Origin: a virus
Lineage: Duplodnaviria > Heunggongvirae > Uroviricota > Caudoviricetes
IMG/VR virus record: IMGVR_UViG_2706794694_000010
DNA length: 6,388 nt
Reading direction: 5' to 3' (one strand)
Each line of letters opens with the position of its first letter. Position 1 is the first letter of the stretch. Shown here in pieces: positions 108 to 6,388 of this stretch. The notes under the pieces are model-generated. The model did not search any database. It was not told where the DNA came from and saw only the letters and a program-made list of their open reading frames with translations. The translations under genes were made by a program, and so were the position numbers.

Positions 108-293
108 GGATAGCGGTCATGTGATGCCGGTTTCCCGGTAACTCAGCACCGGTATCTGAGTCAACGTTTTCTCTACTGGGTCATTTCCGATACGCCCTGC
201 CTGCTGACAGGCTTTCATCACATCTGAAAATATAGCACCCTGACTGATACTGTAGTACCTAAGGTTCCAGAAACTGTGATGTATCCGGCACAG

Positions 294-314
294 AAAAGCC
301 CCTCCGGAGAGGGC
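294..314 (-). terminator. Possible weak intrinsic terminator on the minus strand (bulged GC-rich hairpin followed by UUUU)
   Basis: Minus strand reads GCCCTCTCCGGAGGGGC then TTTTCTG; the stem is imperfect, with a bulge. Confidence 0.3.
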
Positions 315-511
315 TGGAGAGTGGCGCTATGTGCCATTGCATGATGCCGGGTGCCTCCCGGTGAATTCAGTACCAGCACCTGAATCCGCGATTATCCCAT
401 ATACCTACTCGCTGATTGCCCCTCCGCACAGGGGGATTCACCATGCCAGTTTCTTTTAACAAACTCCCCGCAAAACAGACAACTGTCAACCGTCTGAATT
501 GTGAGACATTT

Positions 512-1900: not shown

Positions 1901-1932
1901 GGATCATTAAGCCTGTCTCTGATAGGCTCATT

Positions 1933-1951
1933 CTGCTTTTGCGCAAAGCAG
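1933..1951. promoter_or_regulatory. Dyad-symmetry element CTGCTTT-N5-AAAGCAG upstream of the methyltransferase start; candidate operator
   Basis: 7-bp perfect arms around a 5-bp TGCGC core, 33 bp upstream of the methyltransferase ATG; overlaps a weak -35-like TTGCGC on the minus strand. Confidence 0.3.
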
Positions 1952-1993
1952 TGGGCCTGAGGTTTGCTTGTGAACCCAACGCATGAGCAGATG

Positions 1994-2022
1994 GCTGGTG
2001 GGTGCCCCTAACACCCACCAGC
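1994..2022. repeat. Perfect 11-bp inverted repeat GCTGGTGGGTG-N7-CACCCACCAGC; stable hairpin or protein-binding palindrome, function unknown
   Basis: Exact reverse-complement arms with a 7-nt spacer; no U-tract follows on either strand, so it is not a canonical terminator. Confidence 0.5.
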
Positions 2023-2036
2023 CGCCCATTTACCAC

Positions 2037-2064
2037 AAATAAAAAAGCCTTCACTGCGGAAGGC
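2037..2064 (-). terminator. Intrinsic terminator immediately after the small ORF
   Basis: Minus strand GCCTTC-CGCAGT-GAAGGC followed by TTTTTTATTT; the hairpin overlaps the ORF stop codon. Confidence 0.55.
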
Positions 2065-2248
2065 GTCTGTAACAACCGAACTGATAGTCTGCCAGACCCG
2101 CCATAACCAGCTGGGTCAGTATTAACTGGCAGCGTTCGCGTGAAAGGTAAGTATTCTGCGCTATCTCCCCGACTGTCGCCGGTTCGGTAACGCTTAATTC
2201 ATTAAACACCACTCTGGCGGTTTCTGTCATATCCTGCTGTTTTAGCAT
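2051..2248 (-). CDS. Small hypothetical protein (65 aa), possible winged-helix DNA-binding fold
   Basis: ORF with an AAGGA Shine-Dalgarno 7-8 nt upstream. The segment TVGEIAQNTYLSRERCQLILTQLVMAGLAD has a helix-turn-helix-like pattern, with a loose resemblance to PapI/FaeA-type small regulators; judged by eye only. Confidence 0.5.
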   Translation of the reverse strand: MLKQQDMTETARVVFNELSVTEPATVGEIAQNTYLSRERCQLILTQLVMAGLADYQFGCYRRLPQ

Positions 2249-2368
2249 GTCTTTTCCTTTTCCGGTTAACGTGACACACCAATAACTCTTGTCGAAAAAG
2301 CCAGCAAGCTGAAAGACAGGTATTCACCGCCACCAGCGCGTTTACTGTACTGACGCGATTTCAGTCAT

Positions 2369-2472: not shown

Positions 2473-3294
2473 TTACCTAGTTACCTTTTTTAACTGCCGC
2501 TCAGCCCATGCTTCTTCAATATCAAACCGGGTCACCAGCGCATCATAAAATTTCTTAACTGTTTTTTCCCATGACGCGCGTGTTATCTGGTTTGTCACCT
2601 CGCATATAGCATTAAATGCCTCCGTTGATGGTAGTCTTTCATAGCCACGACCACCACAACGCTGGCAGTCTCTGATAACAGGCATACCACGTTTTACCGA
2701 CTCTTCACGATGAATGGCGACACCACGCCCACGGCAATCCTTACAGGCGGTGGAAACCTCACCCTTTCCGCCACACTCCGGACAGGCAACTTTTACCACC
2801 TCCCTGACTTTTTTCCATTCTTCCCAGTAAGACGGATACACACCTTTCGTACACTTTGCCCATACCGGCGGCTTACCATCCGGATACTGGATCTTGTTTG
2901 TAAAAACCTCGCTTTCAATAAATTTTTTTCCGTGACAGCAGGGGCACTGTTTTTTGCTCGCCGCGCTACGGGCATAATCTTCAAACGCATACGAAGCCAT
3001 AATACGCATCACTGCCGGTTTTATTTCTGCCGGGAGTTTTCTTAACGCCGCCACGCGATCACACCGACTGAGTGCATATTCTGTCAGCAATTCTGTTGCC
3101 CGCTCTCTGTCATTCATACTAATGCCCATTTTCCCAAGGAACGCAGAAACCCCCATCTCAGCCCGATTCTGTGTCATGCCCTGCGCGGCCATCACATCAG
3201 TGATACTCAGCGCATCTTTCGACGTTGAGGCCGATGCATCAGTCAGGCCGGGGGATTTTGGGGAGTAGTATTTCGGTAAATCTTCCAGTTTCAT
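2473..3294 (-). CDS. Q: Late-gene antitermination protein Q, lambda-Q family, with an expanded Cys-rich zinc-binding region
   Basis: 273-aa ORF. N-terminus MKLEDLPKYYSPKSP...TDVMAAQGM and C-terminus FYDALVTR...VTR parallel lambda Q; four CxxC pairs. The ATG overlaps the rusA stop (ATGA). Confidence 0.85.
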   Translation of the reverse strand: MKLEDLPKYYSPKSPGLTDASASTSKDALSITDVMAAQGMTQNRAEMGVSAFLGKMGISMNDRERATELLTEYALSRCDRVAALRKLPAEIKPAVMRIMASYAFEDYARSAASKKQCPCCHGKKFIESEVFTNKIQYPDGKPPVWAKCTKGVYPSYWEEWKKVREVVKVACPECGGKGEVSTACKDCRGRGVAIHREESVKRGMPVIRDCQRCGGRGYERLPSTEAFNAICEVTNQITRASWEKTVKKFYDALVTRFDIEEAWAERQLKKVTR

Positions 3295-3671
3295 TTTTTG
3301 ACCTGCCCTTCAAGCATTATGGGATAAATCTTCACCCCCAGACGTCCACCAGATACTGGCTGAGCACGAACGATATTGATTTCATCAAACTGCTCATCGT
3401 CCATTAGCAACCCCGCATGCGTCAGCGCATCCAGCGGCGCTTTCAGAATATTGTCCAGGTCACGGCGGCGCTTATCCGGTGGTTCTGCAATAATTTTTAT
3501 TGCCAACCTTCCGGACAGGCTTAATTTCAGCCGCTGCTGGCGAACAATAAGCGCCACTGCCCGGCGATAACGCTCCCCGGCTTTTGATACAAAATATGTG
3601 CTGCCACGACGACGCCAGTAAGTGTTCACCGTCGGCGGGTAAGGTAAAACAAATTCTATGCGCTCGGTCAT
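3291..3671 (-). CDS. rusA: Crossover junction endodeoxyribonuclease RusA (Holliday-junction resolvase)
   Basis: 126-aa ORF with LPYPPTVNTYW, PDKRRRDLDN, DALTHAGLLMDDEQF and GGRL motifs matching RusA. Its ATG directly abuts the upstream stop (TAAATG). Confidence 0.9.
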   Translation of the reverse strand: MTERIEFVLPYPPTVNTYWRRRGSTYFVSKAGERYRRAVALIVRQQRLKLSLSGRLAIKIIAEPPDKRRRDLDNILKAPLDALTHAGLLMDDEQFDEINIVRAQPVSGGRLGVKIYPIMLEGQVKK

Positions 3672-4730
3672 TTATGCTTTCCACTTCAGAACACCCGAAT
3701 TTCTCGCGTGCATTAAAAAACGAATCAGCAACAACAGCTGACTGCCGTGTTTCTCTTCAAAATCTTTTACTCCGGCATGTAGTTCGTTACGGCATTTACG
3801 GCATAACGGAATAACAAACAAATCATCAGCCTTTGTTCCCATCCCTCCCAGTCCATGACCAATGATGTGATGCGGATCATCTGCCTGATTGCCACACGTC
3901 ATGCATTTCTGCGTTTTTACCCAGCGCGTGTATACAGGCATCTCTTCCCGTTGTGATTTCTGGCGCTGGAGATACTGAGCCGGTGACTCCGGATCAACGG
4001 CAATGCTGACCACCGTCTTTTCCTGTGGTGGGTTCTGTTGCTGGTGGACGTGAGGCAGTAACGCAATATTTTTTGTGCGCTGCTTCAGTATGCTGGTGGC
4101 TGTCTGCTCTCCCGGTATGATGTCGCTTTCACTGTACACAGAGCGAATTTTTTCCGCACGCAACCCCAGCGAACGACGTAATACCGCTTCCGGTAGCGCG
4201 TCCGCCACCTGATTGCGGACCGCCCACCAGGATAATTCAGCCAGAGATAATTCACGCTCCTGCGTACCGCTTATTGCGTGACCGATGACGTCAATCATCC
4301 ATGCTGACAGGTTTTGATGAGCAAGTTGCTCGAGTGATTCGGATGTCTGGTCACGCAGCTGGTTGTCGCAGTGCCAGCACAACACCATTGCGCCGGTACC
4401 ATAACGGTGAATGACGGTTTCGCTGTGATGATAATCGCCGTGTGGCCACTGGCAGGATTTAATATGGCGCAACAGCCAGTCAGACAATGCACCAGCACCA
4501 CCAGCAGCACGAATCACCCGTGCGTTACTGAAAAACGGCAGCAATGTTTTGTCTTCCACCAGCGGCTGGCGAGCGGCAGGAACGACCCCGGACGGCAGAT
4601 TACGCATGCTTTTTGGTTCCGGCTCCACCAGTATTCTGCCGTTATGGAATGCTGACATTGATTCACGGCCTGGCTTAACGATAACCAGACCGAGTTCCGG
4701 TACCAGAACAGGTCGAAGTAATACCCGCAC
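3672..4730 (-). CDS. Prophage protein of the DUF968 / YdfU-like type with a C-terminal Cys/His HNH-like motif
   Basis: 352-aa ORF; C-terminal CMTCGN...HHIIGHGLGG...IPLCRKCRNELH. The GTG at 4730 has a GGAGG Shine-Dalgarno 4 nt upstream; an internal ATG at 4658 is an alternative start. Family assignment is from memory. Confidence 0.75.
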   Translation of the reverse strand: MRVLLRPVLVPELGLVIVKPGRESMSAFHNGRILVEPEPKSMRNLPSGVVPAARQPLVEDKTLLPFFSNARVIRAAGGAGALSDWLLRHIKSCQWPHGDYHHSETVIHRYGTGAMVLCWHCDNQLRDQTSESLEQLAHQNLSAWMIDVIGHAISGTQERELSLAELSWWAVRNQVADALPEAVLRRSLGLRAEKIRSVYSESDIIPGEQTATSILKQRTKNIALLPHVHQQQNPPQEKTVVSIAVDPESPAQYLQRQKSQREEMPVYTRWVKTQKCMTCGNQADDPHHIIGHGLGGMGTKADDLFVIPLCRKCRNELHAGVKDFEEKHGSQLLLLIRFLMHARNSGVLKWKA

Positions 4731-5332: not shown

Positions 5333-5418
5333 NNNNNNNNNNNNNNNNNNNNNNNNNNNNNNNNNNNNNNNNNNNNNNNNNNNNNNNNNNNNNNNNNNNN
5401 NNNNNNNNNNNNNNNNNN
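5333..5418. other. Run of 86 N: scaffold or assembly gap of unknown true length
   Basis: Literal n characters in the sequence. Confidence 0.99.
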
Positions 5419-6082: not shown

Positions 6083-6313
6083 TTAACCCGCAGTGCTTTC
6101 AACTGATGAGGGGAACAAAATCTTTTCATCAAACCCTGCATTCATATCATGAACAGCAACACACCAATCCATCGACGAACGATTATCAAGAGCCTCCATG
6201 ATTTCATCCATGCGGCGTAGGTCATACAGGTAAATGCTTTTATCGCCAATGGTGTAAAAGCCAATTTTTTTCGGTGATGGATGAGGTGTACTGGCAATAG
6301 CGGACACTACCAT
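6083..6313 (-). CDS. Hypothetical protein (76 aa from the ATG at 6313); may be the 3' part of a larger gene truncated at the window edge
   Basis: The ORF starts inside the terminal inverted repeat with no convincing Shine-Dalgarno. The same frame stays open upstream to position 6388 (the window edge), so it may be a 5'-partial CDS spanning 6083-6388. Confidence 0.55.
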   Translation of the reverse strand: MVVSAIASTPHPSPKKIGFYTIGDKSIYLYDLRRMDEIMEALDNRSSMDWCVAVHDMNAGFDEKILFPSSVESTAG

Positions 6314-6388
6314 TTGTTCTTTTTTTAAGCAGCCATCTGATGATATTTTTCCCTGAAGGCTGCCGGGGAGATATTCCCCAGACGAGAG
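6282..6388. repeat. Right copy of the perfect 107-bp inverted repeat (reverse complement of 1-107)
   Basis: Base-by-base reverse-complement identity with 1-107; extends to the window edge. Confidence 0.9.

Follow-up and report, generated by a model that had tools for sequence, protein, structure and literature searches.

In bacteriophage Mu, the Com protein works on a translation-inhibitory stem in the mom mRNA. This small protein activates the translation of mom, a harmful gene, and in Mu-like prophages, too, genes resembling com are found in front of non-specific adenine methyltransferases, the examples being FluMu hin1523, Pnme1 nma1821, hia5 and phage B3 ORF47/48 (PMC3299994). In arrangements of the com-mom type, the modification enzyme shields the phage DNA from many restriction systems (PMC3299994). 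The locus considered here comes from IMG/VR virus record IMGVR_UViG_2706794694_000010 (Caudoviricetes), in which a stretch of 6,388 nt, hereafter called the window, was analysed. On its minus strand, the window contains a gene coding for a 65-aa protein (2051–2248, with the ATG at 2248 and the stop codon at 2051–2053), a spacer of exactly 150 nt (1901–2050) and a gene coding for a 352-aa DNA methyltransferase (842–1900, with the ATG at 1898–1900), and between the two genes there is a structured RNA leader of about 140 nt. We consider it reasonably probable that the interval represents a winged-helix gene together with a structured leader which gates, in cis, the translation of a toxic late enzyme. 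The com-mom system of Mu appears to be the closest functional analogue, with the logic shared and the parts different.

As in com-mom, the small gene is located directly upstream, on the same strand, of a harmful late and putatively non-specific modification enzyme, and the start region of the enzyme gene is predicted from covariation and folds to lie in an inhibitory RNA structure, which in this case is the helix P2. Com, however, is a Cys4 zinc finger, whereas the protein encoded here is a winged helix with one invariant cysteine. The two genes are 150 nt apart and are separated by a multi-helix leader, to which a terminator is added in the Escherichia coli-type phages. The host phages also differ from Mu in being lambdoid with Q-dependent late operons, and RNA binding by the small protein is a candidate function.

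In a preliminary description of this DNA, the locus had been likened to the controller (C) protein modules of restriction-modification systems and to the PapI-type regulators, and neither likeness has held. C proteins are dimers with an Xre-type helix-turn-helix (HTH) domain, HTH_3, whose palindromic binding boxes precede their own gene, and they control when the nuclease is expressed. The locus does resemble such modules in having a small HTH-type protein next to a methyltransferase, with dyads nearby. Unlike a C protein, the small protein is a winged helix in which Pfam found no HTH_3 domain, no boxes are located upstream of its gene, and no nuclease gene is adjacent; the window contains no restriction enzyme gene at all, as had been correctly noted before. 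The C-box analogy fails because the dyads follow the small gene and behave as RNA helices, with a compensatory, G-U-rich pattern of variation, and because the spacer has no detectable promoter. PapI and FaeA, known from Dam/Lrp phase variation, are likewise winged-helix proteins of about 70 aa found in a context of adenine methylation, but their family, PF04703, is absent from the Pfam matches of the small protein (E values up to 1), no conserved pair of GATC sites is present, and the enzyme is assigned to the M.EcoGII type and not to Dam.

The locus was also compared with leaders that sequester the ribosome-binding site, namely riboswitch expression platforms, RNA thermometers, the lambda N leader and MS2-type long-range pairings. 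It shares with them a long-range helix over the start region, a candidate alternative pairing that is mutually exclusive, and conserved unpaired nucleotides. Unlike them, it has no Rfam match and no canonical Shine-Dalgarno sequence, and it accompanies one gene family in Enterobacterales phages only.

Structure and conservation of the RNA leader

The gap between the two genes had been described as a 150-bp region with structured elements, and this has been borne out to the nucleotide. The leader extends over 1898–2038 of the minus strand, ending at the methyltransferase AUG, and was defined using alignments A1, A3 and A4 of 37, 53 and 99 sequences, with structures obtained from RNAalifold and a hand-curated covariance model, R1, which gives the window 128 bits. 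In the alignments, invariant blocks alternate with stems varying in a compensatory fashion, and it is very probable indeed that this structure of the RNA exists and is subject to selection.

The leader includes the helices P1a, P1b/c, P2a, P2b, P3 and P4, all of them on the minus strand. P1b/c is formed by GGCUGGUGGGUG (2012–2023) and CACCCACCAGCC (1993–2004), an inverted repeat with a 7-nt loop which had rightly been called perfect, although it comprises 12 bp and not the 11 bp first given. P1a, in which AUGGGC (2024–2029) is paired with GCUCAU (1983–1988), is a 6-bp extension of this repeat, and P1 including P1a is a nearly uninterrupted duplex of about 18–20 bp. P2 is a long-range helix enclosing P3 and P4. 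Its part P2a pairs GGUUCA (1971–1976) with UGAUCC (1901–1906) and abuts the AUG directly, and its part P2b pairs AAGC (1966–1969) with GCUU (1909–1912). P3 consists of GGCCCA (1952–1957) and UGAGCC (1925–1930). The apical stem P4 consists of CUGCUUU (1945–1951) and AAAGCAG (1933–1939), and corresponds to the 7-N5-7 dyad, CTGCTTT and AAAGCAG in the DNA, that had been reported earlier. Both dyads of the spacer are RNA stems, the 12-bp repeat forming the body of the hairpin P1 and P4 the apex of a second domain, which P2 closes. Across the alignments, the consensus of P2a is GGUCA with UGAUC, the 3′ strand stopping 1–2 nt short of the AUG; the GATC just before the AUG is invariant, and its partner arm is GGUCA, GUUCA or GAUCA. 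Many unpaired positions of the leader are invariant as well.

The pairing was evaluated in two alignments made in different ways. In A4, which was fitted to the model, 92% of the cells are paired, 15 pairs are changed on both sides and the covariation score is 0.190, compared with no more than 0.106 for the slid controls and with 0 of 500 shuffles reaching 0.190. In A3, made with MAFFT blind to structure, 88% of the cells are paired, 13 pairs are changed on both sides (1/500 shuffles) and the covariation score is 0.170, the slid controls giving no more than 0.125. With regard to individual helices, 8 of the 12 pairs of P1b/c are changed on both sides, with 96% of the cells paired, and P2b covaries between AAG/CUU, GGA/UCC and GGGC/GCCC, both sides having changed in 4 of its 5 pairs; the variation in P1a is limited to G-U, G-C and U-G changes. 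At the outer pair of P3, 71 sequences have GC and 21 have AU, and one inner pair (P3/P4) is CG in 47 and UA in 11, such pair counts being counts of sequences, many of them related, and not of independent events. Whole stems have also been swapped with the pairing retained, as is the case in Providencia (GACUGUAAAGGUG/CACCCUUACAGUC) and in locus L284 (GACAGUGAGGAUG/CAUCCCCACUGUC).

On the gene strand, the P1 and P2 cells include 234 G-U and 32 A-C combinations, and this excess of G-U over A-C indicates that the selected structure is on the gene-sense strand, i.e. in the RNA. The leader fold has a z value of −4.9 relative to shuffled sequences, and the minimum-free-energy folds of five divergent clade representatives all contain P1, together with a P2 extending to the start codon. 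Between clades, the spacer is the best conserved of the three parts, its identity being 70–85%, that of the small gene 61–77% and that of the methyltransferase gene 67–78%, with the synonymous sites saturated.

Searches of Rfam 15 with the whole window and then with the narrow region, at E values up to 10, revealed no family at threshold for the leader. The best match on 1880–2080 was P26, with 24.2 bits against a threshold of 36 and on the opposite strand, the rest being microRNA noise. On the sense strand of the leader nothing in Rfam 15 was matched, including the riboswitches for S-adenosylmethionine (SAM) and S-adenosylhomocysteine (SAH).

A candidate alternative helix is formed by UCUGCU (1986–1991) and AGCAAA (1963–1968), also on the minus strand, and joins the P1a 3′ strand to the P2b 5′ strand, with UUCGCU and AGCGAA as another form of the two strands. 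As this helix cannot coexist with P1a and P2b, it would constitute a possible switch, and the comparison of sequences is suggestive of one: at its pair 51:77, 43 sequences have UA, 25 have CG and 5 have AU, and at its pair 54:74, 65 have UA and 26 have CG.

It was also observed that the 5′ tail of the leader contains an invariant UGUG(G/A) (2033–2037) complementary to the invariant UCACA (1969–1973), which overlaps the 5′ strand of P2. This may possibly be a third pairing that frees the start region, neither of its sides being variable. In addition, the invariant AUG within P1a was considered as the start of a leader peptide. It opens a 33-codon open reading frame (ORF) in the window (1928–2029, MGGWWVL...), and the corresponding ORF has 7 codons in most clades and at least 18 in Providencia, with no Shine-Dalgarno sequence and no conserved peptide. 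The leader peptide was rejected because the variation follows the stems and not the codons, and the mini-ORF of P1a with its tandem tryptophans is probably not translated.

The genes linked to the leader and its proposed action

When one genome per species was taken, the small ORF was followed by the methyltransferase gene in 23 of 24 loci, with a spacer of 142–154 nt in the 21 of these 23 in which it was measured. The loci include representatives of Escherichia, Salmonella, Kluyvera, Klebsiella, Citrobacter, Buttiauxella, Mixta, Mangrovibacter, Scandinavium, Enterobacter and Providencia. Both genes are present in 294 of about 310 fetched loci bearing the leader, too. The linkage of the two genes is tight and ancient. 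The leader with the upstream terminator hairpin was found in 1816 of 5426 complete E. coli genomes, in up to 7 copies each, and at least 80% of a 631-nt query spanning the block was covered in 1760 of the 5426. Among the phages possessing the leader are Stx2a/2c/2d converting phages, phiP27, SfV, mEp460 and the cdtI phage. A search for distant relatives via the methyltransferase alignment returned near-identical E. coli loci only, and a pattern scan of metagenomes returned the same clades and none beyond Enterobacterales-type sequences, the pattern itself having narrowed the reach of the scan.

The exceptions to this arrangement show which gene the leader belongs to. It is intact where the small ORF has been deleted (loci L288, L281 and L304), and in L314 and L322 a terminator leads straight into an intact leader, with no small ORF between them. 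Where the methyltransferase has been replaced (PhiR5_1/L002, Stx2k/L003, L014 and L101), the leader is cut, at points that differ from locus to locus. Being intact without the small ORF, truncated without the methyltransferase and invariably ending at the methyltransferase AUG, the leader can be assigned to the methyltransferase mRNA as an element acting in cis. The small ORF is interrupted by an in-frame stop codon in L104 (Mangrovibacter yixingensis, 3001–3204) and carries an internal deletion in L100 (Buttiauxella ferragutiae), with the leader and the methyltransferase intact in both, which is a further sign that the small protein is dispensable in cis.

The methyltransferase matches the Pfam family N6_N4_Mtase with an E value of 8e-42 and is an orphan β-class N6-adenine DNA methyltransferase with an N-terminal DPPY motif (TDPPYF, residues 34–39) and a C-terminal FxGxG motif (FFMGLGS, residues 309–315). 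It is 95% identical to the methyltransferase of phage 1720a-02, described by Murray et al. as very similar to M.EcoGII (PMC5778455). The latter is a non-specific adenine methyltransferase which is unexpressed in the lysogen and harmful if constitutive (PMC5778455), and which also acts on RNA (PMC5778455; PMC11551740). Through the 1720a-02 homologue, the window enzyme is assigned by sequence to the M.EcoGII type, and its methylation is putatively non-specific on the same grounds. M.EcoGII and M.EcoGI, both from prophages of E. coli O104:H4, share with it the β-class motif order and the prophage context, and the descriptions of M.EcoGII (PMC5778455, PMC11551740) contain no mention of an upstream leader or small gene.

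The cassette had initially been proposed to be a regulated epigenetic module. Regulation has stood up in part as a general idea, the spacer elements being conserved and almost certainly regulatory, but the operator mechanism then suggested for it has not. An epigenetic module is also less likely than self-protection against restriction during lytic growth, because the enzyme groups with the non-specific, lysogen-silent M.EcoGII type.

The 65-aa ORF is a real gene. Its product is a member of PHROG 331, a group of unknown function, and is named by NCBI either 'TrmB family transcriptional regulator' or hypothetical protein. Pfam profiles matched winged-helix families only, all of them below threshold (TrmB gave 18 bits with a cut-off of 25.6). 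The HTH-like segment pointed out in the preliminary description proved to be real. Using an alignment of 69 sequences, AlphaFold2 predicted a minimal winged helix with a pLDDT of 93.1, which comprises helices at residues 9–16, 26–33 and 37–49 and a β-hairpin wing at 53–62 and resembles solved winged-helix domains of the MarR/ArsR-like kind, with three helices and a wing. According to this model, the small protein is a winged helix of the nucleic-acid-binding type. The recognition helix CQLILTQL is its best-conserved stretch, and its single invariant cysteine is C40. A comparison with PDB sequences gave a chance match to YraP only (E 0.63), and PADLOC found nothing relevant to the small protein. 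The homologues are confined to Enterobacterales, with 490 matches among 5.8 billion clustered proteins and 98 representatives at 50% identity among 1.84 billion, nearly all of which are stand-alone proteins of 60–110 aa. Between clades, the nonsynonymous divergence (dN) of the small ORF is 0.08–0.58 with the synonymous divergence (dS) saturated, so the protein is under purifying selection. The winged-helix protein may have a regulatory role.

A hairpin designated T2 (GCCTTC/GAAGGC, 2047–2064, minus strand) overlaps the stop codon of the small ORF and corresponds to the intrinsic terminator reported previously. It was found in a terminator scan, consists of 6 pairs followed by TTTTTTAT, with a T-run at 2037–2046, and has the GC-rich hairpin and the U-tract expected of a rho-independent terminator. 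In other Enterobacteriaceae, the hairpin is kept by compensatory changes and the U-tract is usually weak.

No canonical Shine-Dalgarno sequence is present ahead of the methyltransferase AUG, where there is only UGAUC. This sequence is the complement of GAUCA, which is part of the 3′ tail of 16S rRNA. Since UGAUC is the 3′ strand of P2a and a canonical Shine-Dalgarno sequence is lacking, P2 should limit initiation. On balance, the evidence leans towards the leader gating the translation of the methyltransferase in cis, with the occlusion of the start site suggested by thermodynamics and comparison.

The following sequence of events may be proposed. P2 would keep the translation of the toxic enzyme low or conditional, and pairing between the P1a 3′ strand and the P2b 5′ strand would switch the leader into an open form. 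Transcription would be gated separately, the cassette being the first unit of the late operon, behind the terminator tR′; in the E. coli-type phages, the second terminator at the stop codon of the small ORF would add to this gating, and meaningful read-through would require Q. By analogy with com-mom, the co-transcribed winged-helix protein would be the best candidate for remodelling the leader, and we tentatively suggest that it may act as the trans-acting partner of the leader. The same caution applies to the most complete version of this proposal, a possible lambdoid counterpart of com-mom assembled from unrelated parts, in which the winged helix would bind a hitherto undescribed RNA switch of about 140 nt and flip it from the closed form with P1a and P2 to the open form with the alternative helix, so that the toxic methyltransferase would be translated only once late transcripts have accumulated.

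If true, such a counterpart would represent a new class of protein-responsive RNA, and RNA binding would be a role of a minimal winged helix. The leader itself shows covariation and has two competing folds, and as a candidate switch it is compact and directly testable. It is widespread, about one in three complete E. coli genomes and many phages encoding Shiga toxin possessing it, yet absent from Rfam. The leader could account for the silence of M.EcoGII-type enzymes in lysogens despite a constitutively active late promoter and leaky terminators, and for the way in which phages can use a toxic pan-adenine methyltransferase only late in infection, evading restriction. Those using M.EcoGII as a tool would in turn gain knowledge of the native control element of the enzyme.

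Several points weigh against the gating of translation by the leader and its putative partner. The sequences behind the pair counts are, as mentioned, often related. Single-sequence folds of the opposite strand are equally stable, and the strand was decided by the G-U/A-C asymmetry because such folding could not decide it. The alternative helix pairs in 73% of the cells, and its score is equalled or exceeded by that of one slid control. Conservation of the second terminator does not extend beyond the E. coli-type phages, and the Providencia/Morganella clade lacks the T2 hairpin. A few loci keep an intact leader and methyltransferase with the small ORF absent or damaged, and the winged-helix protein shows no hint favouring RNA over DNA or the reverse. 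Finally, P1 is not a sequence-specific target of the small protein, since the same protein occurs beside different P1 stems: the small proteins of L205 and L269 are identical and their P1 stems differ, in L284 the recognition helix is the same beside a P1 hairpin and a loop that are unrelated, and no co-variation between protein clade and P1 sequence was seen.

Alternative explanations

The alternative that survives best, although we regard it as unlikely, is that the winged-helix protein acts elsewhere, either regulating its own gene or acting on host or phage DNA, and that the leader works without it. A place for autoregulation could be the bipartite element found by conservation upstream of the 65-aa ORF (2272–2308, minus strand), which consists of CTTGCTG, 12 variable nt and AGAGTTATTGGTGTGTCA, with the spacing constant across all clades. 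The second block has the cross-clade form AGAGTTAT(T/C)(G/T)GT(G/A)TGTCA and is followed by a small variable hairpin. Owing to its promoter-like layout, the element could be the promoter of the moron or the operator of the winged-helix protein. The loci that possess the leader and the methyltransferase with no small ORF also speak for an action elsewhere, as do the small ORFs that occur without the methyltransferase in PhiR5_1 and in the Stx2k phage. However, no clear dyad symmetry was seen in the element, the promoter scan of 1700–2600 did not recognise it as a sigma-70 promoter, and the small ORF, the leader and the methyltransferase are found together almost universally across genera, which points to a common function. 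The element was also compared with the consensuses of sigma-70, 54, 32, E and 28 and of LexA and IHF sites, with no convincing match.

It is rather improbable that the leader is mainly an element of RNA processing or stability, with P1 serving, for instance, as an RNase III site in the manner of the lambda N leader. Cleavage would then uncouple the messages of the small ORF and the methyltransferase and remodel the start region. The near-continuous duplex of P1 and P1a is suitable for this, the pairing of P1 is conserved and its sequence is not, and the P1a 3′ strand, once freed, would favour the alternative helix that opens P2. Despite that, cleavage is putative, and it accounts no better than a switch for the invariant unpaired nucleotides and the P2–P4 domain.

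About equally improbable is a leader that senses SAM or SAH, as a riboswitch, or the methyltransferase itself, in autogenous repression, given that M.EcoGII binds and methylates RNA. The many invariant unpaired positions and the two competing folds are what leaders responding to a ligand typically show, loci lacking the small ORF retain the leader, and M.EcoGII acts on RNA (PMC5778455; PMC11551740). On the other hand, the leader bears no likeness to the SAM/SAH or any other riboswitch class in Rfam 15, and its occurrence in a single phage gene context fits a protein partner better, ligand binding being putative.

The explanation originally advanced, in which a controller-type winged-helix factor binds the dyads of the spacer as DNA operators and gates a promoter of the methyltransferase, is now distinctly improbable. 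It could draw on the winged-helix fold typical of MarR/ArsR repressors, on the strict synteny of the small gene and the methyltransferase and on the recognition helix being the most conserved part of the protein. The dyads, however, vary in a compensatory fashion with a 7:1 preference for G-U over A-C on one strand, the same protein is found with different stems and its recognition helix is the same beside the unrelated hairpin of L284, and the dyads are located downstream and not upstream of the small gene, with neither an Xre-type HTH nor a nuclease gene at hand. The −35-like hexamer TTCACA is indeed present but specific to this variant, other clades having GGTCAC or GATCAC in its place, and the sigma-70 scan of 1700–2600 revealed no promoter, the spacer included.

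The weakest explanation, that the conservation is non-functional and reflects recent horizontal spread or a DNA recombination boundary between mosaic modules, is highly improbable: phage late regions are mosaic and the breakpoints of the methyltransferase-less variants do fall within or just after P1, but the flanking synonymous sites are saturated with the spacer still about 80% identical and fixed in length, several helices carry compensatory changes, and the breakpoints are unlike one another, for which reason the idea of a recombination site was dropped.

Late-operon position and other features of the window

The minus strand of the window represents the late-regulatory region of a lambdoid prophage. 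Upstream of the cassette there are genes coding for a DUF968/HNH protein (3672–4730), RusA (3291–3671) and the Q antiterminator (2473–3294; PF03589, E 2e-53). Just downstream of Q, late-promoter-like hexamers, TTGATT-16-TAAATT (2440–2467), were read directly from the sequence, and the terminator scan revealed a tR′ terminator-like hairpin at 2373–2392, all on the minus strand. The 65-aa ORF is situated between this hairpin and the methyltransferase ATG, in agreement with the preliminary description, as is the placement of the cassette in the moron slot between Q and the transfer RNA (tRNA) genes. In phage SfV, in which lysis genes follow the cassette, the order is Q, terminator, orf47, orf48 (methyltransferase), terminator and the S/R/Rz lysis genes. 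The cassette is invariably located 3′ of Q, which may belong to any of three unrelated families (PF03589, PF06323 and PF06530), and therefore sits behind tR′.

Downstream of the methyltransferase gene, three tRNAs are encoded on the minus strand (552–801), namely a Met-like tRNA (CAT), Arg (TCG) and Arg (TCT). In a near-identical prophage the tRNA with the CAT anticodon is labelled Ile by RefSeq, implying the lysidine-modified ileX type. Just downstream of the tRNA cluster there is an STnc100-like small RNA (286–475, minus strand; Rfam 123.6 bits, E 1e-27), a weaker copy of which was detected by Rfam at 59–247 of the same strand, overlapping the terminal repeat. This repeat, formed by positions 1–107 and 6282–6388, is a perfect inverted repeat of 107 nt, and an 86-base run of N is present at 5333–5418; both look like a scaffold or assembly artefact (a fold-back contig) and not like biology. 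The segment 5218–5299 of the minus strand shows a weak, sub-threshold resemblance to IsrK, an Hfq-binding small RNA (25.8 bits, E 0.017). At its end there is a hairpin resembling a terminator, and downstream of it lies an ORF of 94 aa whose function is unknown.

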